From Actinomycetes bacterium (lineage in GTDB: Bacteria > Actinomycetota > Thermoleophilia > Gaiellales > Gaiellaceae), in NCBI GenBank assembly GCA_031371615.1, contig JANMJY010000063.1:1-54705 (forward strand): a stretch of 54,705 nucleotides of DNA, in the 5' to 3' direction. The position numbers and the translations under genes were made by a program. Below are positions 26,276-38,371 of the stretch, piece after piece; positions within the stretch are counted from its first letter, which is position 1; each line of letters starts with the position of its first letter. A model generated the notes under the pieces. That model did no database searches. It worked only from the letters and a program-made list of their open reading frames with translations, and was not told the DNA's origin.

Positions 26276-27388
<1,113 letters not shown>

Positions 27389-27395
27389 GGCTGTC

Positions 27396-29000
27396 TCAGA
27401 AGTTGGACGAGATGCTCCGGTAGACGGCCTTGATGTCCTCCGGGCTGCCCGTGAAGAACAATCCGCCCGAGGCGGACGCGATCTGCTCGAGCGCCTGCGC
27501 GTCTGCGCGGCCCCGGTACGTGACGGTGAAGATCCGGACGCTCGCGCCCTCGGTGGGCGGCAGCGCCTTGATCTCGCGGAGCAGCTGAGTGCGCCCGACG
27601 TCCGTGCCGGCGCCGTCGGAGAGCACGACGACGGCGTTGATGCGGTCACGGTCGTCGCGCGTGCGCAGGTCGTCGAGCGCACGTGAGACCGCCCCGTAGA
27701 CCGGCAGGTCGCCGTTTGCGAAGAGATCGTCGACCGCCCCGGTCACGGCCGGCCCGCTCTTGCTCAGCACGCCCAGTGGGACGTTCGTCGTGACCGTGTC
27801 GCCGGACGAGATGAGTGCGACTCGGTCGCGCTGCGAGAGCTCGCGCAGGAACGAGAGCAACCCCTGCTTGGCGGCGTCGAGGCGCCCGTCCTCCGCCATC
27901 GAGTTCGACGTGTCCACGACGAGGACGATGTTCGCGGGCGGGCGGTCTTCGTGCCAGGCTTCGCGGATCGCGGCGAGCACCTCCGGCGCCGGCGGCTCGA
28001 GCTCCGCGAAGACCTTCGGGCGGCGGACCCGGAAGCCGCTCTCGGCCGCGCGCTTGGCGGTGATCCTCGGGACGAGCCAGCTGCGGAAGGCCTTCGCAGC
28101 AGCGCGAGCGTCTGGGCTCAGCCAGGGGGCGTCGAGCGCGATCAGCGGATAGTCGGCGACGAAGGTCCCGTCGGCCGGGTCGATCTCCGCGAGCTGCTTC
28201 GCCGCCGGCTTCCCCTTGTTGAACTTGTGCAGGTTCGTCTCCTGCACGTACGCCGCGTGGGCATAGGGCTGACCGTAACGGCCCATCTTCTCGAGCAGCC
28301 TGTCTGCGGTCTCGCCGTAGTGCACGATCGACCGTTCGATCGTCCGGACGGCGTCCCGGGCCCCGGGACGGCGGACGTCTGCGAGGGTCAGGCCCGACCG
28401 CTTCCCAGTGACGGCGTAGTAATCGGAGGCGACGGCCGAGAGCCCTGAGGTCGAGTAGCCCGGGTTCGTGTGCCCGAGCTTGAACGAGCCGTACTCTGGG
28501 TGCCCGTAGTCCGCCCAGCTGCGCCTCGAGGTGGCCAGGTCGAGGATGTCGCTCCAGCCGATCTTCTTCTCCGGCCAGCCGAGCGCCAGGGCAAACGACT
28601 TCCACATCGCGATCACTTGAGGCGAAAACACGAGCGGCGGATTCTCGGCGGGCACCCAATCGGCGGAGACGTTGTGGTCGAGCAGCCTGCCCCATAGGGA
28701 GGAGGCGGGCGTCCAGAGCGCAGCTCGTTCGCGGCCGGCGGCGAGCGCCTCTTCGGCTGCGCCGGACGTGAGCGCGTCGCCGTTGATCCACACCTCGCGA
28801 CCACCGCGGCGGTGGCTCTCGCGGTTGAAACGGTCGATCAGCGGGACGAGCAGCTCCTCGGCGTCGGTCGAGTAGAGGTAGCGCAGCACGAGCTCCGGTT
28901 CTTCCGTCTGAGCCTCGGGATCCCCTCGTCCAGCCGCGGCGACGAGAACTGCCACGGCTGCGGCGGCGATGACGATCGCCCGTGCGATCCGCGGCGTCAC
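27396..29000 (-). CDS. Substrate-binding-domain and vWA-domain protein (secreted/anchored)
   Basis: N-terminal anchor (AIVIAAAAVAVLVAAAG) and a solute-binding-like region. The C-terminal vWA has MIDAS VVDTSNSM. GTGA overlap with the upstream LuxR gene. Confidence 0.85.
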   Translation of the reverse strand: MTPRIARAIVIAAAAVAVLVAAAGRGDPEAQTEEPELVLRYLYSTDAEELLVPLIDRFNRESHRRGGREVWINGDALTSGAAEEALAAGRERAALWTPASSLWGRLLDHNVSADWVPAENPPLVFSPQVIAMWKSFALALGWPEKKIGWSDILDLATSRRSWADYGHPEYGSFKLGHTNPGYSTSGLSAVASDYYAVTGKRSGLTLADVRRPGARDAVRTIERSIVHYGETADRLLEKMGRYGQPYAHAAYVQETNLHKFNKGKPAAKQLAEIDPADGTFVADYPLIALDAPWLSPDARAAAKAFRSWLVPRITAKRAAESGFRVRRPKVFAELEPPAPEVLAAIREAWHEDRPPANIVLVVDTSNSMAEDGRLDAAKQGLLSFLRELSQRDRVALISSGDTVTTNVPLGVLSKSGPAVTGAVDDLFANGDLPVYGAVSRALDDLRTRDDRDRINAVVVLSDGAGTDVGRTQLLREIKALPPTEGASVRIFTVTYRGRADAQALEQIASASGGLFFTGSPEDIKAVYRSISSNF

Positions 29001-31633
29001 GAAGCTTCGAGCAGCTCCTGCTCGGCGAGGCGGTGCTGGAGTTGCCGCCCGGACGCGATCCCGAGCTTGCGGTAGACCTTGCCAAGGTGGTACTCGATCG
29101 TCTTCGGGCTCAGGTAGAGCTTTGCGGCGACCTCCTTCTGGCTCGCACCCGCGGCGACCAAGCGCGCGATCTGAAGCTCCTGCGGGGTCAACTCGTCCAT
29201 CGTGCTCGGCTCACGCCTGCGGGCGGTCTCGCCACTTGCGCGGAGCTCCTGTCGCGCTCGCTCGCTCCACGGTTCGGCGTCGAGCTGCTCGAAGATGGCG
29301 AGGGCAGCTCTCAGCTCGTCGCGGGCTTCGCGGCGTGAGCCCTCGCGGCGGAGGTGCTCGCCGAGGTTGAGCCGCACGCGCGCGAGCAGGAACGGCCGTT
29401 CCGCGAATTGCTCGCTTGCCTCGGCGAATCCGGTGCCATCGAGGAGCGCGCCGGCCCACGTCGCGTCCCCGCCGCGTAGCTGCGCCGCCGCGACTCTAGC
29501 CTCCTCCCGCCGGCCGGCACGCAGGTAGGCCTCCGCCAGGTCGAGGTGGGGAGCGGGCAGGCCTCGCACCAGGATCGACGGCGCCGGATCGGCGGCCGCC
29601 GCCTCGAGCTGTGCGATCGCAGTGTCGGTCTCACCGCCTCCCAGCGCGGCGAGCCCCAGGATGCGCGCTGCCATCGCGCCGTCGCCCGGTTCCGCGGTCG
29701 CGCGGCCGCGAAGAGCATCGATCAAGGCGCTCCCAGCGACGGCGGCGGTCCGCTCACGCCCCTGGCCGATCTCGTCGGCCAGGCGGGCCGCCTCGAAGAA
29801 GTTGAGCGATGCATCCGTCCAGCGGCCGGCCTCGAAGTCCAGCCAGGCTCTCAGGAGCAGTGCCCTCGGGAGCACGACGACGGCGTGTGCGCGCGCCGCC
29901 GCGGTCAGCTCGCCGAGGAGCTCGCGGAAGAGTGCGTCTTCGCCGGAGCCGACGTGAGCGAGCGTCTCGACCGCGGCGAGGATCAGCTCCGGGTCGTGCC
30001 GGAGCTCCCGGTTCGCGGCGAGCATTGCCCTCGCGCGAGCGAGACGCTCGTGAGCCTCCGCCGCTTCGCCGGCTTCGAGCAGCGTGCGCGCGAGCACGAG
30101 GCTCGCGAGCAGGTCCGCCGCATCGTCGCGTCCCGTTGTCAGCAAGGCCGCCCGCCGGGCCAGCCCCAGGCCTGAGCCGGTCAAGGCCTCCGCGGCCGTC
30201 GCGAGCATTGCGCCCGCCCGGCCCGCGTCGAGCGGCTCGACGCGGTCGGCCTCGGCCACGAGCCGGTCGATCACCTCGGCGTCGGCGTGCAGGCGGAGCT
30301 CGATCCGGCACTGGAGGTGGGCGGCGTCGGCGCGGAGTACGTCATCCGCTCCGGCTGAAGCCGCATCGTCGAGCAGGCGCAGCGCGCGGTCGCCCTGCCC
30401 GGCCAGCCAGGCGGAGTGGGCGGCACGGTAGAGCCGCTGCGCCCGAGGTTCGTTCTCGGGCGTCAGCCGGGCGGCGTGCTCGAACATCGCCGCAGCCGCC
30501 ACGTGACCGCGGCGGCCGCTCGCCGCCGTGGCCGCGGCCTCGAGCCGGCCGGCGACCTCCTCGTTCGGCTCCACGCTCGCCGCTGCCGAGTGCCAGGCCC
30601 GCCGCTCGGCGTACTTGCCATCGTCCGCGAAGCCGTCCGCGAGCGCTTGATGCGCTGCCCGCCGCTCGGCCGCTGTCGCTTGCTGGTAGACCGCCGACCT
30701 GACCAGCGGGTGCTTGAAGGTGACCTGGCCGTCCTCGATCGCGAGCAGGCCGGCATCTTCGCACTCCTCGAAGGCCGCGGTACTCGTGCCGCCGGTCCGG
30801 GTGATCACCCGCATCGCCCTCGTGTCGGCGGTGGCCGCGAGCACGAGCGCGCGCCGCGCCTGCTCCGAGAGGCTGCGCGCCTGCGCTGCGAAGACGGCCT
30901 CCAGGCTCTCGCCGACAGGCACCGGGTGCGGCAACGGCTCCGCGCCCTGCAGTTGCTCGCCGCTCAGGCGGCGTGGCAGCCCGAGCATCGCGAGCGGGTT
31001 GCCGCCGGTCGCGGCGACGAGCTCCTCGGCGACCTCCAGCGAGACGCGCACGTTCGCATCGTGATCCAGCAGCACGACGGCGGCCTGCGCGTCGAGGCCT
31101 GCGAGCTCGAGCTCCGGAATCCCGCTCGTGGGGAAGCCCCGGCCGCGGGCTGCGAAGAGCATGACGACGCCCTCCGCCTCGAGCCGCCGCGCCGCGAACG
31201 CGAGCGCGCCGGCCGACGCCTCGTCGAGCCAGTGCGCGTCGTCGATCACGCAGAGGAGCGGGCCGTCATCTCTCGCAGCGGCGAGGAGGCTCAGCGTTGC
31301 GGCGCCGATGTAGAGCCTGCCCGCACCCTGTGCTTCGGCGAGCGCAAGCGCGCCGCGGAGCGCATCCGCTTGCACCGGCGGCAGCTCCGGCAGCCGGTCG
31401 AGCAGGGGGCGCACGAGCTCGTGCAGACCCGAGTAGGCGAACTCCGACTCGGTCTCGACGCCGAGTGCTCGTGCAACCCGGGCGGCGCCGGCCCGCACGA
31501 CGGCGTACTCGAGCAGTGTGCTCTTGCCGATCCCGGCGTCGCCGCGGATCACGAGCGCGCCGCTGCGGCCGGCCCGTGCTTCCTCGAGCATCAGATCGAT
31601 CCGAGCGCACTCACTCTCACGGCCGATGAGCAC
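28997..31633 (-). CDS. Large ATP-binding LuxR-family (LAL/STAND-type) transcriptional regulator
   Basis: 878 aa. LIGRESE...GDAGIGKST Walker A, a long helical-repeat middle, and a C-terminal LuxR HTH (LTPQELQIARLVAAGASQKEVAAKLYLSPKTIEYHLGKVYRKLGI). Confidence 0.85.
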   Translation of the reverse strand: MLIGRESECARIDLMLEEARAGRSGALVIRGDAGIGKSTLLEYAVVRAGAARVARALGVETESEFAYSGLHELVRPLLDRLPELPPVQADALRGALALAEAQGAGRLYIGAATLSLLAAARDDGPLLCVIDDAHWLDEASAGALAFAARRLEAEGVVMLFAARGRGFPTSGIPELELAGLDAQAAVVLLDHDANVRVSLEVAEELVAATGGNPLAMLGLPRRLSGEQLQGAEPLPHPVPVGESLEAVFAAQARSLSEQARRALVLAATADTRAMRVITRTGGTSTAAFEECEDAGLLAIEDGQVTFKHPLVRSAVYQQATAAERRAAHQALADGFADDGKYAERRAWHSAAASVEPNEEVAGRLEAAATAASGRRGHVAAAAMFEHAARLTPENEPRAQRLYRAAHSAWLAGQGDRALRLLDDAASAGADDVLRADAAHLQCRIELRLHADAEVIDRLVAEADRVEPLDAGRAGAMLATAAEALTGSGLGLARRAALLTTGRDDAADLLASLVLARTLLEAGEAAEAHERLARARAMLAANRELRHDPELILAAVETLAHVGSGEDALFRELLGELTAAARAHAVVVLPRALLLRAWLDFEAGRWTDASLNFFEAARLADEIGQGRERTAAVAGSALIDALRGRATAEPGDGAMAARILGLAALGGGETDTAIAQLEAAAADPAPSILVRGLPAPHLDLAEAYLRAGRREEARVAAAQLRGGDATWAGALLDGTGFAEASEQFAERPFLLARVRLNLGEHLRREGSRREARDELRAALAIFEQLDAEPWSERARQELRASGETARRREPSTMDELTPQELQIARLVAAGASQKEVAAKLYLSPKTIEYHLGKVYRKLGIASGRQLQHRLAEQELLEAS

Positions 31634-31748
31634 CCGCCGATCATAGAACGCGACGTTTGTAACCAGGAATTCGGCTAGGGAGATCCCGGACGCGATCGCG
31701 CTACCTCTTTCCTACGCTCGCTTCAAAGCCACAGAGAAAGGTGACGAG

Positions 31749-33293
31749 ATGTCGAGCTTCTCCCTGACCGAAACGTGGAAGACGGTGGCTCCCATAGCGG
31801 TGCGACCGACGATCCGGCGGACGAAGATCGTCTGCACGCTGGGGCCGGCGACGACCGACCCCGAGACGATCTTCGAGCTGGCGGCGACGGGCATGGATGT
31901 CGCCCGTCTGAACTTCTCGCATGGCTCACACGACGAGCATCTCGATCGTCTCGCGGCGGTGCGGATCGCGCAGGACCGCCTCCGGCGGCCGATCGCCGTC
32001 CTCGCGGACCTCTGCGGCCCGAAGCTCCGCGTCACGGGGCTGCACGAGCCGATGCAGGTTGCGGCGGGCGACGCGCTCGTCCTGACCGCGTCGGAGCGCG
32101 CGCAGCCCGGTGAGCTCGGCGTCAGCTTCCCGGCACTGCTCGTCCAGGTCGTCGCTCCGGGCGACGAGGTGCTGATCGACGACGGACGCATCCGGACTCG
32201 CGCCGAGGGAAGCGACGGCACCAGGCTTCTCTGCCGCGTCGAGGTCGGCGGGACGATCGGGCCGTCGAAGGGAGTCAACCTGCCGTCGTCGTCGCTGCCG
32301 ATCCCGGCGCTGACGGAGAAGGACCGGGTCGATCTGCGGTTCGCGCTCGCCGCCGGCGCCGACTACGTGGCGCTCTCCTTCGTCCGGACGGCCGAGGATG
32401 TCGCGGAGCTGCGACACCTGATCGCCGCCGCCGGCTCCTCGGCGCGGATCATCGCGAAGATCGAGAAGGCCGAGGCGATCGTCAATCTCGACGCGATCAT
32501 CGAGGCAGCGGACGCGGTCATGGTCGCGCGGGGCGACCTCGGCGTCGAGATCGGCGTCTCGCAGGTGCCGCTCGTCCAGAAGCGGATCATCGAGCGCGCC
32601 CGCGCCGCCGGCCGAGCGGTGATCACCGCGACGCAGATGCTCGAGTCGATGATCCACGAGCCGGAGCCGACGCGCGCGGAGGTGTCGGACGTTGCGAACG
32701 CGATCCTCGACGGCACGTCCGCGGTCATGCTCTCGGCCGAGACCGCCGCGGGTGACTTCCCGCTGCGAGCGGTGGCGCAGATGGACGCGATCGCGCGGTC
32801 GGTGGAGCCGTCGCTCGCCTACGAGCGGCGCGTCAGGACCGGCGCGGACGTCGCAGAGATCCTGACCCACGGCGCGTGTGACCTCGCCGACGACGTCGGC
32901 GCACCGGTGATCGCGGTCTCGACCGAGACGGGGGCGACCGCACGGCTCGTCTCGCGCTTCCGGCCGCAGGGACCGATCGTGGCCACGTCGACGAGTCCCG
33001 GCGTCCTCCAGCAACTCGCGCTCGAGTGGGCGGTCGTGCCGCTCCTCGTCGACGAGCCGGCCTCGATCGCGGCCGGCTGGGCGAACATCATCGGCAAGGT
33101 GCTCGAGCACGGGCTCGCGCAGCCCGGCGACACGATCGTGCTCACGGGCCGCGCCGACGTTCCCCTCGGGGGCTCGACGAACCACGTCTTCCTCCACCGC
33201 GTCGACGAGCCCGAGGCGCAGCAGAATCGGGTTCAGCGCCACGGACGCCGGATCCGGGAGCGGGCGGTTCGCGAGGCGGTCGCGGGTGGGTGA
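31749..33293 (+). CDS. pyk: Pyruvate kinase
   Basis: RRTKIVCTLGPAT, ARLNFSHG, MVARGDLGVEI, ITATQMLESM. Confidence 0.9.
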   Translation: MSSFSLTETWKTVAPIAVRPTIRRTKIVCTLGPATTDPETIFELAATGMDVARLNFSHGSHDEHLDRLAAVRIAQDRLRRPIAVLADLCGPKLRVTGLHEPMQVAAGDALVLTASERAQPGELGVSFPALLVQVVAPGDEVLIDDGRIRTRAEGSDGTRLLCRVEVGGTIGPSKGVNLPSSSLPIPALTEKDRVDLRFALAAGADYVALSFVRTAEDVAELRHLIAAAGSSARIIAKIEKAEAIVNLDAIIEAADAVMVARGDLGVEIGVSQVPLVQKRIIERARAAGRAVITATQMLESMIHEPEPTRAEVSDVANAILDGTSAVMLSAETAAGDFPLRAVAQMDAIARSVEPSLAYERRVRTGADVAEILTHGACDLADDVGAPVIAVSTETGATARLVSRFRPQGPIVATSTSPGVLQQLALEWAVVPLLVDEPASIAAGWANIIGKVLEHGLAQPGDTIVLTGRADVPLGGSTNHVFLHRVDEPEAQQNRVQRHGRRIRERAVREAVAGG

Positions 33294-34461
33294 GCACGCC
33301 CACGAGCTCCTCCGGCGCTTCGGCAGCCCGCTCTACGTCTACGACCTCGGGGAGATCGAGCAGCGCTACTTCCGGTTCGTGCAGGCGTTCCCGTACCGGC
33401 CGCTGGAGTGCCACTTCGCGCTCGTCTGCAACAAGAACCCGGTCATCGTCCGGCGGCTCCACGAGCTCGGGGCGGGGGTGCACGCCAACACCCCCGGTGA
33501 TGCCTTCGCGGCGCTCGCCGCGGGCGTGCCGGCGAAGGACGTCGTCTACAGCGGGACGAACCTGACGTGCGCCGACCTCGACTACCTGCTCGGACGCGGA
33601 GTCGCGCTCAACGTCGACTCGCTCGACCAGCTGCGGGAGGTGGTGCGCCGTGGCTGCGGAAGCGTCGGGCTCCGGTACCTGATCGACGACCCGGCGAAGC
33701 GGAACCGGATCGGGGTCTCGCCCGGCGAGCTCAGCGAGGCGCTTCGAATCGCGGAGCTCGCCGGCGTCCGGGTCGCCGGGCTGCACATGTATGCCGGGAC
33801 GAACAATCTTCGGCCGGCGCGCTTCCTCGGCTGCGTCGACCGGTTGCTCGCGGCGGCCGAGACGCTCCCCGACCTCGAGTACGTGAACCTCGGCGGCGGC
33901 TACGGGATCGGATACCGCGAAGGAGAGCCCGATCTCGACGTCGATGCGATCGGGCGGGAAGTGGCGCGTCGGCTGCAGTCACTCTCGGGGCGGCGGGGGC
34001 GCGCGATCAGGCTGGTCGTGGAGCCCGGACGCGTGCTCGTCGCTTCTGCGGGGTCGCTCCTGATGACGGTCGTCTCGGTGAAGCATCGCGGCGCCCGGCG
34101 CTTCGTCGGCGTCGACACCACCGTCGGGAACATCGTCGTCCCGAGCGTCTACCACGGCTACCACCGGATCGAGGTGGTCACGGCGCGCGGCCACCCACTA
34201 GCGCTGACCACCGACGTCTGCGGGAACACCACCCACTCGGGCGACTTCATCGCCCGCGACGTCCGCCTGCCGCCCGTCGAGCCGGGCGATGTGCTGGCCC
34301 TGCGCGACGTGGGCGCCTACGCGTACGCGATGTCGAGCCACTTCCTCAACCGTCCCCGCCCGGCCGAGGTGGTGCTGGACGGAGGCGAGGCGATTCTGAC
34401 GACGAGACGAGAGACGCTCGACGACCTCATGTCGCTCTACGAGCCCGGAGTACTGGCGTGA
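33286..34461 (+). CDS. Divergent Orn/DAP/Arg-decarboxylase-fold PLP enzyme (diaminopimelate-decarboxylase-like)
   Basis: GSPLYVYD, the PLP-Lys region (LVCNKN), NLGGGYGIGY, VVEPGRVLVA, and a C...SGD active-site region with an insertion (CGNTTHSGD). GTG start overlaps the pyk end by 8 nt. Confidence 0.8.
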   Translation: MGEHAHELLRRFGSPLYVYDLGEIEQRYFRFVQAFPYRPLECHFALVCNKNPVIVRRLHELGAGVHANTPGDAFAALAAGVPAKDVVYSGTNLTCADLDYLLGRGVALNVDSLDQLREVVRRGCGSVGLRYLIDDPAKRNRIGVSPGELSEALRIAELAGVRVAGLHMYAGTNNLRPARFLGCVDRLLAAAETLPDLEYVNLGGGYGIGYREGEPDLDVDAIGREVARRLQSLSGRRGRAIRLVVEPGRVLVASAGSLLMTVVSVKHRGARRFVGVDTTVGNIVVPSVYHGYHRIEVVTARGHPLALTTDVCGNTTHSGDFIARDVRLPPVEPGDVLALRDVGAYAYAMSSHFLNRPRPAEVVLDGGEAILTTRRETLDDLMSLYEPGVLA

Positions 34462-35390
34462 AGTGCATCCACTGCGGGACCGACTCGGACCACAACGCAC
34501 GGCAAGCGGGCGGCGCCTGCCGCGAGTGCGGCCGGCGGTTCGCCTTCGAGCCGAAGCGCGACCGGGGCATTACCGATCCCACGTTCAAGCTGGCGATCGA
34601 GGCGGTGTCGGACGGTGGGCGCCTCGCGTGGGGCGACGACCACCTCTACTACGAGGTCTGTCGCCGCGTGCGCCGCCGCCGGCACGTGCACCGGCTGCTG
34701 CGACGTCCGATGGTCAGCCTCGACCGGCCGAATTTCGAGCTTCTGCTCGGCCGGTGGATCGACGCACACGGGCCGATCGTCGGTCGGCTCGAGCGGAAGG
34801 TGTTCGCAGAGATCGCGCCTGACGCCGCCGCACCCCGCGTCGAGGCGTACGGCTTCGAGCAGCTCGTCGTCTGCGACGACGACGCGATTGCGGACGTGCT
34901 GCTCGTCAACGACTTCCACGCCGAGCTCAAGTGCCCGGTGCTGTCGTACAGCGGTTACCCCTCACACGTCTACGAACCGCTGATTCGGCTCCTCCGCGAG
35001 CGCCCGCCGGCGACGGTGGTAGTGATCCACAACGCCGATCTGGACGGGTGCAGGCTCGCACGCTCGATCGCCGAGGATCCGCGCTGGTTCGCGGGCGTCG
35101 AGCTGCCGAAGGTGGTCGACGCCGGGCTGCGTCCCGGAGACGCGAAGCGCTTCCGTGGACTATTCCAGGTGGCCGCCTCCGGCTTCGACGCCACGTCGCC
35201 CGGGGTCTCGCCCCAGGAAGCGAAGTGGCTCGGCACCTACCGCCTCGAGCTGGCGGCCGCACGTCCACGCGTGCTGATGGGCGTGCTGGGGAACGTGCTT
35301 CGCGGCGAGACCGAGGCTGGAAGCACCGACGGCGGCGGGCTGTTGTGGGCGGGCGACGCGTGGGCCGACGGTGACGACGAGGTCGGCTGA
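34458..35390 (+). CDS. Hypothetical protein with N-terminal CxxC...CxxC zinc ribbon
   Basis: GTGA overlap with the preceding gene. 310 aa with very high GC3 throughout. CIHCG...CRECG. I recognise no family. Confidence 0.7.
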   Translation: MKCIHCGTDSDHNARQAGGACRECGRRFAFEPKRDRGITDPTFKLAIEAVSDGGRLAWGDDHLYYEVCRRVRRRRHVHRLLRRPMVSLDRPNFELLLGRWIDAHGPIVGRLERKVFAEIAPDAAAPRVEAYGFEQLVVCDDDAIADVLLVNDFHAELKCPVLSYSGYPSHVYEPLIRLLRERPPATVVVIHNADLDGCRLARSIAEDPRWFAGVELPKVVDAGLRPGDAKRFRGLFQVAASGFDATSPGVSPQEAKWLGTYRLELAAARPRVLMGVLGNVLRGETEAGSTDGGGLLWAGDAWADGDDEVG

Positions 35391-37098
35391 CGCCGCGGCG
35401 CGGGCCGCCGAGCCTGCGCACGGCGAACGGGCGCAGATCGGCGGCGTCGTGGGCGCCGGGGTGGACGCGGTCACATTGGCGCGCTTCGCCCGGGCGCTCG
35501 GCCCGGGGCGGCGGCTGCTGGCCGGGCCGCAACGGTGCTTCGTCGGCGACTGGGACGCATGCCGTCTCTACGGCGCCACGGTCGGCGCGCCCGAGCTGGA
35601 GCAGCTTGCGCGACGGGGACGGCTCGGCGAGGTCGAAGGCGCGTTCGCGCTGGCGTGGCTGGACGGCAACGGCCTCCACCTCGCCCGCGACCCGGTCGGA
35701 GAGCGCGGCGCGTACTACGCTCACGTCGCGGGAGGGGTCGCGTTCGCCTCGACGCTCCGGCCTCTGCTCGAGGCGGGCATCGTCCCGCGGGCGCTGAACG
35801 CCGCCGCCCTCCCGGCGTACCTCTCGTTCGGCTATCTCCCGGGCCGCGAGACCCTTGTCGAGGGCGTGTCCGAACTGCTGCCCGGCCAGCACCTGGTCTT
35901 CCACGGCGATGGTGTCCGCGAGGAGCGGCTCTGGAGCCTGCCGGCCGAGGACGAGCAGCCGGAAGGCGAGGAGGTCTACCGGCTTCGCTTGCGCGCCCGC
36001 CTGGAAGCGGCGGTTGGCTGCCGCCTGCCCGCCTCCGGCCCGGTCGCGGCGACGCTGTCTGGCGGGATCGACTCGAGTGTCGTCGCGGCGCTGGCGAGCC
36101 GAATCCACAACGGCTCCGTCTCGACCTTCTCGCTCTCGTTTGGGCGCGGGATCCCGAACGAGCTCGAGTTCGCGGCGGCCGTTGCGGCGCATTGCGGCAC
36201 CGAACACCACGTCGTCGAGCTCTTGCCACGGGAGGTGATGGAGCGGTTCGACGCGACGATGGCCGCGCTCAGTACGCCGATCGGCGAGCCGCTCACAGTC
36301 GCGAACTCGCTCCTCTTCGAGGCAGCGTCGGAGCGAGCCTCGGTCGTGCTCAACGGCGAAGGCGGCGACCCCTGCTTCGGCGGTCCGAAGAACGTCCCGA
36401 TGATCCTCAGCGCACTCTACGGCGGGCATCTGGAGCGGAGCTACCTCGTCGCCCACCGCAAGTGCTTCACGGAGCTCGAGCGGATGCTCGACCCGGACGT
36501 GATCGCCGCCGCCGGCCTGGAGGCGTTGGTGAGCCCGCACCTGTCGGATCCGCGCTGGTCCACGCTCGTGAACCGGCTGATGGCCATGAACGTCACCTTC
36601 AAGGGCGGACACCACATCCTCCCGAAGGTCGATCAGCTCAGCCGGCCGTACGCAGTTCTGCCGCGTTCGCCGCTCTTCGACCGCGGCGTCGTCGACGCGG
36701 CTCTGCGGATGCCGGCCGACCTGAAGCTGCGGGGCACGGTCGAGAAGTACATCCTCAAGCGCGCGGTCGAGGATCTACTACCGGCCGAGATCGTGACGCG
36801 CCGGAAGAGCGGCATGCGCGTGCCCGTCGAGCTGTGGCTGCAGGGGAGGTTCGACCGCTTCGCACGCGAGCGGCTGCTCGACGGCCTCGCCCCGTACGGG
36901 ATCATCCAGCGCTCGTACCTCGAGGAGCTGGCCCGCCCCGACAAGCAGCTGCCGCCGCGGCGGCGCGGCGTGAAGATCTGGCTGCTCTTGTCTCTGGAGG
37001 CGTGGCTGCGAACCGTCTTAGCGCCGCGGCCGGAACAGCGCGCCGAAGAAACAGACGACCAGGATCAGAGTCGTGAAGAACGCGGCGCTCTCCATTAG
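35371..37098 (+). CDS. Asparagine-synthetase-family adenylating amidotransferase homologue lacking the N-terminal Cys nucleophile
   Basis: SGGIDSS PP-loop, and FALAWLDG...LHLARDPVGERGAYY (remnant of the Ntn domain). There is no MC(G) start. Start uncertain (GTG 35371 or GTG 35449). Confidence 0.8.
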   Translation: MTTRSADAAARAAEPAHGERAQIGGVVGAGVDAVTLARFARALGPGRRLLAGPQRCFVGDWDACRLYGATVGAPELEQLARRGRLGEVEGAFALAWLDGNGLHLARDPVGERGAYYAHVAGGVAFASTLRPLLEAGIVPRALNAAALPAYLSFGYLPGRETLVEGVSELLPGQHLVFHGDGVREERLWSLPAEDEQPEGEEVYRLRLRARLEAAVGCRLPASGPVAATLSGGIDSSVVAALASRIHNGSVSTFSLSFGRGIPNELEFAAAVAAHCGTEHHVVELLPREVMERFDATMAALSTPIGEPLTVANSLLFEAASERASVVLNGEGGDPCFGGPKNVPMILSALYGGHLERSYLVAHRKCFTELERMLDPDVIAAAGLEALVSPHLSDPRWSTLVNRLMAMNVTFKGGHHILPKVDQLSRPYAVLPRSPLFDRGVVDAALRMPADLKLRGTVEKYILKRAVEDLLPAEIVTRRKSGMRVPVELWLQGRFDRFARERLLDGLAPYGIIQRSYLEELARPDKQLPPRRRGVKIWLLLSLEAWLRTVLAPRPEQRAEETDDQDQSREERGALH

Positions 37099-37224
37099 AG
37101 CCTCGACACTCGATCCCTGTGGCAGCAGAACGGCGGCGACGGTCAGGCCGCCGAGAGCCAGCGTGGGGAGGAAGCAGGCCTCGACGACGGGCTTGTCGTA
37201 CACCTTCCAGAACCGGACGGTCAT
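37018..37224 (-). CDS. Small (68 aa) two-TM membrane protein
   Basis: GC3 by eye is about 85%, clearly higher than the opposing AsnB-like tail frame. Two hydrophobic helices. Lies 47 nt downstream of the lyxose-isomerase gene on the same strand. Confidence 0.45.
   Translation of the reverse strand: MTVRFWKVYDKPVVEACFLPTLALGGLTVAAVLLPQGSSVEALMESAAFFTTLILVVCFFGALFRPRR

Positions 37225-37271: not shown

Positions 37272-38371
<1,100 letters not shown>

Follow-up and report, generated by a model that had tools for sequence, protein, structure and literature searches.

A widespread, uncharacterised gene cassette links AsnB-like ligases to a predicted Toprim-fold protein with a conserved C-terminal end

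Why should a decarboxylase-like gene, a zinc-ribbon gene and an asparagine-synthetase-like gene follow one another head to tail behind a pyruvate kinase, and what do they do together? The question is raised by contig JANMJY010000063.1 of the Gaiellaceae assembly GCA_031371615.1, which we analysed over its full length of 54,705 nucleotides (the window; contig C71 of a metagenome-assembled genome of 2.9 Mb, 91.9% complete and with ~70% G+C). We found that the genes belong to a module of four to five genes that is kept in at least eight phyla. Comparison of its loci established the cassette as a widespread, uncharacterised accessory module in which the AsnB-like ligases, the zinc-ribbon protein and the decarboxylase-like protein are tightly linked. 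We use the short names dec for the decarboxylase-like gene, unk for the Zn-ribbon/Toprim gene, asn1 and asn2 for AsnB-like ligases 1 and 2, pyk2 for the cassette-linked second pyruvate kinase and LAL for a large ATP-binding LuxR-type (STAND) regulator. The following features make up the cassette in the window:

31749..33293, plus strand: pyk2 (TIGR01064, 502 bits, above the cut-off)
33286..34461, plus strand: dec, fold-type-III protein without the pyridoxal phosphate (PLP) lysine (matches to PF02784 and PF00278)
33424..33426, plus strand: codon of dec Val47, at the position of the PLP Schiff-base lysine (HMMER alignment to LysA 2p3e)
34458..35390, plus strand: unk, 310 amino acids, with Zn ribbon, helical region, predicted Toprim domain and acidic tail (AlphaFold2 model, pLDDT 88.8)
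34464..34529, plus strand: four-Cys Zn ribbon of unk (C3, C6, C21, C24; alignment of 40 homologues)
34791..35345, plus strand: predicted Topo VI-A-type Toprim domain of unk, residues 112-296 (VIA-align, Foldseek, PF21180 in homologues)
35376..35387, plus strand: C-terminal D-E-V-G of unk, the lineage form of [DE]x[FV]G-COOH
35371..37098, plus strand: asn2, Cys-less, with degenerate glutaminase domain (Asn_synthase, 219 bits)
36058..36078, plus strand: PP-loop SGGIDSS of asn2, the ATP pyrophosphatase motif (alignment of 39 orthologues)

Inspection of the open reading frames (ORFs) bore out the head-to-tail overlap of the four genes that had been reported in the original prediction. The GTG of dec at 33286 precedes the TGA of pyk2 at 33291-33293 (8-nt overlap), dec and unk share the GTGA at 34458-34461 (4 nt), and the GTG of asn2 at 35371 lies 20 nt inside unk, whose TGA ends at 35390. 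All four plus-strand frames are coding, with a third-position G+C of 0.85-0.97 in each in a plot of G+C by codon position, and the start codons match the N-termini of the homologues (MKCIxCG for unk, ..ELLxRYGSPLYVYD for dec and the ..RIGG block for asn2). Start/stop overlaps are common in high-GC actinobacteria and the overlaps alone therefore mean little; it is the conserved synteny that lifts the cassette above chance. Consensus promoter and terminator scans of the window were uninformative in this high-GC DNA.

Composition and distribution of the cassette

For the scan anchored on unk we searched one genome per species with a 40-member alignment as query and determined the contents of each locus from tblastn, ORF clustering and hidden Markov model searches. 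This gave 80 loci in Myxococcota, Planctomycetota, Acidobacteriota, Beta- and Gammaproteobacteria, Cyanobacteriota, Armatimonadota, Chloroflexota and other groups. The core has a constant order of AsnB-like gene 1, unk and AsnB-like gene 2: unk had an AsnB-like gene on either side in 68 of the 80 loci, or in 57 of 62 when only those with enough flank are counted. The exceptions are cyanobacterial loci in which another gene is interposed. The usual cassette thus has two AsnB-like genes, of which the lineage of the window has kept one. A total of 35 loci contain dec and 23 a conserved cupin; no locus has the two together. The core of the cassette is unk and not dec, which is optional and replaced by the cupin in other lineages. 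Many loci consist of two ligases and unk only, with no other conserved enzyme. Frequent neighbours were the small single-pass membrane protein c8 (27/80 loci), a TrkA-type K+ channel (10/80) and a further membrane protein, c20.

The reverse scan, in which the dec family alignment was run against metagenome contigs, gave 32 loci with at least 2.5 kb on both sides. An AsnB-like gene was present in 30 of them, unk in 29 and both in 27. Some of the exceptions carry a Toprim partner without Zn ribbon and tail that was too divergent for the threshold. In this subgroup C (L137:3135-3932, L146:1692-2486, L139, L142, L155, L170) an AsnB-like gene, a Toprim-only protein ending in ..P.DP.L.PLT.. and a lysine-less dec that is 46-51% identical stand in this order. 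Across the two scans dec, unk and asn2 co-occur in many phyla, which answers the call for a co-occurrence analysis that had accompanied the original prediction.

Cultured carriers are Gloeothece verrucosa PCC 7822, Enhygromyxa salina and Oscillatoria sp. PCC 10802. In the first of these the cassette is located on plasmid Cy782202 (NC_014534.1, 319-326 kb; L183), in the order AsnB-like gene, 'decarboxylase', hypothetical gene and then an AsnB-like gene on the other strand. RefSeq names the products 'asparagine synthetase B family protein', 'decarboxylase', 'hypothetical protein' and 'asparagine synthase-related protein'. The plasmid is recorded as linear and also encodes a protelomerase; a PEP-CTERM protein and a TIGR04222 membrane protein are encoded near the cassette. 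We found no description of the cassette in Pfam, NCBIfam, the RefSeq names or the literature that we searched. Neither Pfam nor NCBIfam holds a family for c8, c20 or the Toprim protein of subgroup C, and NCBIfam holds none for the cassette cupin.

The core protein and its C-terminal end

No Pfam or NCBIfam family matched unk, whose relatives form 946 clusters at the 50%-cluster level. In an alignment of 40 diverse members the protein starts with a four-Cys Zn ribbon, which is followed by a helical region, a Toprim-like domain and a variable acidic tail. Across these homologues C3, C6 and C24 of the Zn ribbon are invariant and C21 is nearly so. The description as a Zn-ribbon protein of no known kind was therefore right about the ribbon and too modest about the rest, as unk is the universal core of the cassette and combines a predicted Toprim fold with an invariant tail.

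The AlphaFold2 model, built on the 40-member alignment, reached a pLDDT of 88.8 and a pTM of 0.89. VIA-align placed 1d3y_B first (Z 8.8, rmsd 4.5, 161 residues) and also matched 2zbk_A (Z 8.0); the next matches in the structural search were the Wadjet nuclease MksG (8b7f_B, Z 7.7) and then RecR and Spo11. Foldseek matched unk to 9o0g_A with a probability of 1.0. Several unk homologues match PF21180, the Toprim of TOP6A-Spo11, and neighbours in the ESM Atlas carry PF21180 as well. The glutamate-receptor amino-terminal domain, which had the top rank in Foldseek, was dismissed as a generic alpha/beta match with an rmsd above 16 Å. The pattern ..ICDR.., ..GYP.., ..LHDA[TS]xxG.., around beta1, GYP and beta3, presumably echoes that of the Topo VI-A/Spo11 Toprim. 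On the strength of the model, unk is predicted to hold a Toprim fold of the Topo VI-A type.

The catalytic features of that family are a different matter. The candidate site of the 5Y-CAP tyrosine (HLYYE) varies between Y, H, W, R, S, F and Q. The metal triad (E...DxD) is altered to D140...HNAD in the window, to HDAD in near relatives and to HDA[TS] in most members. Judged by the alignment, unk has not retained what characterises a DNA-cleaving Topo VI-A. In the window's own copy the otherwise invariant Asp192 is replaced by Asn, and the near relatives retain HDAD.

Outside the actinobacterial lineage of the window most unk proteins contain hydrophobic stretches between the helical region and the Toprim domain; the commonest number of transmembrane (TM)-like segments is two. 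We found no TM segment in the unk of the window or in 80 of 81 close relatives.

The most constant feature of the protein is its end. The C-terminus reads [DE]x[FV]G in 79 of 83 genomic unk ORFs and in 182 of 237 database homologues, and Gly is the last residue in 217 of the 237. The usual form is DSFG; in the lineage of the window it is DEVG or DDVG. This motif is carried on an acidic linker of low pLDDT that ranges from ~20 to ~300 residues, and the end is constant even where the linker reaches ~300 amino acids. Over the last 40 residues Asp and Glu account for 18%, compared to 10% elsewhere in the protein. We considered whether the conserved tail is a by-product of the overlapping start of asn2 and rejected this, as the overlap is missing in other phyla, where asn2 starts 100-400 nt downstream of unk or lies on the opposite strand.

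In cyanobacterial and related loci (L080, L085, L088, L094, L095, L180, L182) unk is present in two to four tandem copies and the ligases are single. Each of the tandem copies has TM segments of its own, and in at least five two-copy loci every copy resolved at the ORF level ends in [DE]SFG. Long unk matches in the representative search turned out to be such unk-unk duplications or long linkers, not enzyme fusions.

The AsnB-like ligases

The AsnB-like protein of the window is the orthologue of ligase 2 (~50% identity) and is ~34% identical to ligase 1, which is absent in this lineage. It matches PF00733 with 219 bits and yet remains under every NCBIfam cut-off. On TIGR01536, the glutamine-hydrolysing AsnB, asn2 scores 196.7 against a cut-off of 267.1 bits; on the lasso cyclase model NF033535 it scores 112.7 against 525. 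The best NCBIfam match is the NAGGN amidotransferase AsnO (TIGR03104), again below the cut-off with 208.7 against 570 bits. The NAGGN amidotransferase amidates the terminal carboxylate of a peptide. Of the solved structures the hydroxyamidotransferase 7ylz is closest (156 bits), with AsnB, beta-lactam synthetase and CarA scoring lower.

The residues S230, G231, G232, D234, S235 and S236 of the PP-loop and the metal/AMP motif GEGGD are invariant across the 39 orthologues, and adenylation by asn2 is therefore probably intact. In the asn2 N-terminus, ...AQIGGVVG, Gly takes the place of the glutaminase Cys (RPxGRIGG in the orthologues). Both the presence of SGGIDSS and the absence of an N-terminal Cys had been read correctly from the sequence at the outset, as had the lack of lasso-type partners: genes for a B-protease, an RRE or a precursor were not seen among the conserved neighbours of the cassette. 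The N-terminus of asn1 is usually MSGICG, whose Cys would require removal of a four-residue propeptide, and in several loci this Cys is replaced by Ala, Ser, Gly or Trp. As a side observation, many asn2 N-termini (L023:9243-9340, L028, L032, L039, L052 and others) carry a ..PGP[SP]FG..R.RP.GRIGG segment. Its SFG echoes the DSFG end of unk and could be a pseudo-substrate or a coincidence; the segment is absent in the DEVG-ending lineage of the window.

A decarboxylase homologue without the cofactor lysine

Both fold-type-III domains of dec score above the Pfam gathering threshold (PF02784 88.7 bits, PF00278 68.6 bits), and the protein reaches 270.6 bits on the lysA model TIGR01048, for which the curated cut-off is 297.9. 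Alignment to solved LysA and to the LysA of the same genome showed that the Schiff-base lysine is replaced by Val47: dec has F-A-L-V-C-N, with F-A-x-V-C-N as the family form, where LysA proteins have [FY]-[PA]-x-K-[SACV]-N. The PLP-stacking His is replaced by Tyr, the Arg of the R-P motif by Val285 and the Cys-Glu pair by Thr316-His317 (Thr-His/Tyr family-wide). All four replacements are invariant across 35 members, including Val47, at which the genome's own LysA has Lys. In a second subgroup, with F-A-S-V-T-N-G-N, there is no Lys nearby at all. New invariant motifs are HANTPGD and CGNTT[HY]SRD; the GGG phosphate loop, EPGR and GAY are retained. The window's dec has Gly in place of the otherwise invariant Arg319, and near relatives, which also have no ligase 1, carry Gly, Ser or Ala.

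Of the deviations that the original prediction had listed, the TPGD (within HANTPGD) and the VP for RP were recovered. The proposed insertion in the CES-GD loop is instead a substitution of Cys-Glu by Thr-His, according to the HMMER alignment to solved LysA. The main deviation had been overlooked: the Schiff-base lysine has been lost in every member of the family that had been labelled a PLP enzyme. Because of this loss, canonical PLP decarboxylation of a diamino acid by dec is doubtful. Compared with cassette-linked copies from other phyla, the dec of the window shows 55-66% identity within the main group; with copies of the cyanobacterial/Blastocatellia group the value drops to 38-43%. The cross-phylum identity of 55-66% speaks for a constrained function, though not for canonical PLP decarboxylation of diaminopimelate (DAP).

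The cassette could in principle be a redundant set of lysA and asnB for lysine and asparagine synthesis beside a glycolytic pyk, and lysA and asparagine synthase are indeed the top family matches of the two enzymes. However, dec and asn2 fall under the curated cut-offs, and the PLP lysine, the DAP-binding residues and the glutaminase Cys are all gone. Furthermore, canonical copies are found elsewhere in the same genome, with a lysA on contig C130 (388 bits), another and better-scoring asparagine synthase on C139 and a second pyk on C132, and of 41 genomes in the genus only 5 carry the cassette genes. In practice a housekeeping role can be ruled out. The trio would have lost its interest if dec had been the only, conserved lysA and if the three genes had kept company nowhere else; we found a separate lysA and another asparagine synthase, and co-occurrence of the trio far outside this genome. 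The earlier view of an uncharacterised accessory cassette apart from housekeeping therefore stands, and canonical PLP decarboxylation of a diamino acid has become doubtful.

A seven-gene island in the genus of the window

Upstream of the cassette and divergent from it lies an operon of three genes:

26276..27388, minus strand: Hanks-type Ser/Thr kinase (Pkinase, 154 bits), the last gene of the LAL-vWA-kinase operon
27396..29000, minus strand: vWA-domain protein (VWA, 57 bits), kept in the island
28997..31633, minus strand: LAL (STAND) regulator with AAA_16 and GerE matches, divergent from pyk2

The GTG of the kinase at 27388 is 7 nt past the stop of the vWA gene. We compared 41 genomes of the genus, with the unpublished G008 counted as negative. 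Five of them (G000, G004, G019, G020 and G063) are the only ones to share unk, pyk2 (at least 84% identity) and an orthologue of the LAL gene (at least 80%). Every genome of the genus has another pyk at ~52% identity, and copies of at least 84% are found only in the cassette-bearing genomes. The statement that the trio is fused onto pyk therefore needs to be revised, as the pyk in question is a second paralogue that is confined to carriers of the cassette. The order kinase, vWA, LAL on one strand and pyk2, dec, unk, asn2 on the other is kept in all five genomes (island loci L016, L017, L018, L019 and L185-L187) and also in the more distant metagenomic relatives L103, L106, L107 and L149. The kinase is kept beside the cassette in G004, G019, G020 and in G057, a genome of another family. 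In the latter (L020) unk and asn2 directly follow the kinase in the LAL operon, dec is absent and a pyk2-type gene is divergent. We conclude that the LAL/vWA/kinase operon and pyk2-dec-unk-asn2 form one co-inherited accessory island of seven genes (window 26276-37098). With 5 of 41 genomes in the genus and weak matches in only 2 of 300 further high-quality genomes of the phylum, the island is accessory and patchy.

A few observations concern the surroundings and the state of the island. G020 holds two island copies (L018 on G020:C9 and L019 on G020:C17), in both of which pyk, dec, unk and LAL are split over several frames, through either assembly error or decay. On the minus strand of the window a 68-codon ORF (37018-37224) overlaps the 3' end of asn2, and a cupin gene with D-lyxose-isomerase-like matches and a YdjC-family gene (37275-38371) converge on the end of the cassette. 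This cupin (37275-37760, minus strand) was rejected as a cassette-type cupin, given 25% identity, a pairwise E value of 0.004 and its YdjC neighbour.

What the cassette may do

Any reading has to explain three oddities: two divergent AsnB-like ligases without the dyad reported as needed in their peptide-modifying relatives (see below), a dec that is conserved without its cofactor lysine, and a Topo VI-A/Spo11-derived protein with an invariant C-terminal Gly. We tentatively favour the reading, possible rather than probable, that unk is a protein substrate or carrier and that the ligases modify its C-terminal arm. An AsnB-like ligase would adenylate a carboxylate of the tail, either that of the terminal Gly or that of the conserved Asp/Glu at -4, and ammonia or an amino compound would serve as the nitrogen nucleophile to which the activated carboxylate is joined. 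Where present, asn1 with its MSGICG start could supply ammonia derived from glutamine. The appended group might be tailored or bound while tethered by dec or by the cupin that replaces it, as BtrK acts on carrier-bound glutamate, and the Toprim/Zn-ribbon body could be a recognition platform or the regulated output. In the genus the parts would be expressed together from a single operon with translational coupling, in which a dedicated second pyruvate kinase gene comes first, and the co-inherited STAND-LuxR/vWA/Ser-Thr-kinase operon probably controls the cassette.

We arrived at this model because the minimal cassette consists of ligases and unk only, and because an invariant Gly-COOH, an acidic residue at -4 and a flexible tether would suit an enzyme that adenylates carboxylates. 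The tandem duplication of unk beside single ligases also points this way, as precursor genes behave similarly in peptide-modification clusters, and chemistry of asparagine-synthetase (AS)-like enzymes on peptide C-termini has a direct precedent: on ribosomal peptides such enzymes turn the C-terminal carboxylate into an amide, a nitrile or a hydrazide (PMC13060819, PMC13622209; 2026 preprints). We also count in its favour the invariant PP-loop and GEGGD motif of asn2, its missing glutaminase nucleophile, and two further precedents among its relatives, the NAGGN amidotransferase (a match under the cut-off) and 7ylz. Overall, the evidence for the identity of the cassette is strong and the evidence for the tail as the point of action is moderate. 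A bolder version, in which a group is built on the Gly or the -4 residue of unk, or these are conjugated to another molecule, in a previously unrecognised system of protein-tail ligation where the lysine-less dec or a cupin works on the tethered group, appears unlikely. If it were true, it would represent a new carrier or tagging logic with activation of the AsnB type instead of the E1, Pup or ATP-grasp type, and it would be widespread across phyla.

Several observations weigh against action on the tail. Subgroup C has no tail and keeps both the AsnB-like protein and dec, which means that the tail is not required for the association. The polar residues D140, N151, H154, H191 and D192 of the Toprim core are invariant in the unk alignment and suggest an activity of unk's own, which a passive carrier would not need. 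As dec presumably cannot form the internal aldimine, the tailoring role proposed for it is weak. Clustering of the neighbours revealed no conserved releasing protease or exporter near the cassette, and a search for longer forms gave no unk-ligase fusion, although the latter is weak evidence. Finally, a Glu-Tyr dyad near the ATP site is reported to be conserved in AsnB, AsnO, TsrC, ScdTA and PesC and to be needed for activity (PMC13060819). In the cassette the corresponding stretch, GEGSDEIFGGY in AsnB, reads GEGGDQLFGGW in asn1 and GEGGDPCFGGPKN in asn2; the alignment to AsnB was made by motif only and places D-Q-L-F-G-G-W of asn1 and D-P-C-F-G-G-P of asn2 at the dyad positions. On this alignment both ligases would belong to subfamilies distinct from the dyad-bearing AS-like enzymes, and their chemistry may differ from that of AsnB, TsrC, ScdTA and PesC.

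The main rival to modification of the tail is a small-molecule pathway close to the original prediction, which we regard as somewhat unlikely. The ligases and dec or the cupin would make an amide metabolite (of the osmolyte, polyamine-amide or beta-lactam type) from free amino or dicarboxylic acids; unk would be an accessory enzyme, a membrane scaffold or a regulator, and its tail a docking motif for the enzymes. AsnB paralogues with a degenerate glutaminase domain usually serve secondary metabolism and the substrate of 7ylz is a small acid. Docking through an acidic tip on a disordered linker is known from the C-terminus of the single-stranded DNA-binding protein SSB. The tail-less subgroup C retains the ligase, the Toprim protein and dec; dec (with the cross-phylum identities given above) or the cupin is conserved as an enzyme would be, and the TrkA-type channel together with the best match to the osmolyte enzyme AsnO hints at osmoadaptation. 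On the other hand, the many loci with two ligases and unk contain no other enzyme or exporter, dec has neither the PLP lysine nor the DAP-binding residues, and the constant Topo VI-A-like partner with its invariant last residues is left unexplained. The membrane segments of most non-actinobacterial unk proteins, located between Zn ribbon and Toprim, could alternatively mean that a tethered unk places the ligases at the inner membrane face, where carboxylates of lipid-linked precursors are amidated. Candidate targets would be meso-DAP or D-iGlu of peptidoglycan or uronic acids of polysaccharides, in the manner of LtsA/AsnB1 or the exosortase-associated amidotransferase, with dec as a subunit that binds a DAP-like ligand. 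The single-pass proteins c8 and c20 among the frequent neighbours and the sub-threshold matches of dec and asn to TIGR03099 and TIGR03108 agree with such an envelope role. It is nevertheless quite improbable: the unk of the window and 80 of 81 close relatives have neither a TM segment nor c8, the phyla that carry the cassette differ greatly in their envelopes, there is no conserved neighbour of the glycosyltransferase, flippase or Mur type, and dec has other residues where LysA contacts DAP.

The fold of unk, which matches Topo VI-A, MksG and RecR, also allows a system for conflict or maintenance of nucleic acids, with unk as a Toprim nuclease or DNA binder (MksG/JetD- or RecR-like) that is gated by the ligases. 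Phage-encoded Toprim proteins are among its Atlas neighbours, the distribution is that of a patchy accessory element (5/41 genomes in the genus, 3/301 in the phylum), the cassette is plasmid-borne in Gloeothece PCC 7822, and neighbours of the vWA, kinase and STAND types are typical of conflict systems. However, none of the cassette proteins has a match in PADLOC, and no ATPase, SMC or methylase partner was found among the neighbours. Since the 5Y-CAP tyrosine is not conserved, the Toprim triad is altered and most unk homologues are membrane-tethered, we consider a conflict system very improbable. Modification of the unk tail remains the reading that we prefer.

Comparison with known systems

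The Toprim domain of unk is of the Topo VI-A type and resembles Topo VI-A/Spo11 and MksG/JetD (Z 7.3-8.8; PF21180 in homologues). It differs from them by an added N-terminal Zn ribbon, by a TM hairpin in most members and by the acidic C-terminal tail. Neither a Topo VI-B nor a JetABC-like partner is encoded beside unk, whose neighbours are AsnB-like ligases instead.

A pairing of a DAP-decarboxylase-like and an AsnB-like protein is also found in the exosortase-A (PEP-CTERM) system, where TIGR03099 and TIGR03108 form a pair that is itself uncharacterised. The cassette proteins score far below the cut-offs of these models (122 vs 478 and 193 vs 817). There are no exosortase or exopolysaccharide genes in the cassette, and a Toprim protein is not part of the exosortase-A system. 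A possible parallel is tabtoxin biosynthesis, in which the LysA-like TabA and the Cys-less, beta-lactam-synthetase-like TblS co-occur in a pathway that branches from lysine metabolism. The other tabtoxin genes are not in the cassette, and the tabtoxin pathway is not known to involve a Toprim protein.

With LysA (2p3e, 1knw) dec shares the two-domain fold-type-III architecture, and LysA structures are its best sequence matches in the PDB. The differences are the Schiff-base Lys, the stacking His, the Arg for the distal carboxylate, the Cys-Glu pair and the score below the cut-off. A further sequence relative, at 99 bits, is BtrK, the L-glutamyl-[BtrI carrier protein] decarboxylase (2j66/7ru7). 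This fold-III decarboxylase works on a carrier-tethered amino acid and is thus a precedent for tailoring on a protein. BtrK retains the PLP lysine, its carrier is an acyl carrier protein with phosphopantetheine and it is not known to have an AsnB-like partner.

The closest parallel to the preferred reading is provided by TsrC, ScdTA, PesC and FzmA. PesC forms a nitrile via the amide and FzmA a hydrazide, and TsrC and ScdTA, which are cited in the first of the two preprints, form an amide (PMC13060819, PMC13622209). As in the cassette, a PF00733 domain with PP-loop and expected carboxylate adenylation is encoded beside a ribosomal product with a defined C-terminus. The cassette, by contrast, lacks a leader protease, an RRE and an exporter, both of its ligases have other residues in place of the Glu-Tyr dyad and asn2 has no glutaminase nucleophile. 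The putative substrate is not a short precursor but a folded protein of 300-450 amino acids that is often anchored in the membrane, and the cassette may thus extend AS-like C-terminal chemistry from peptides to a folded protein.

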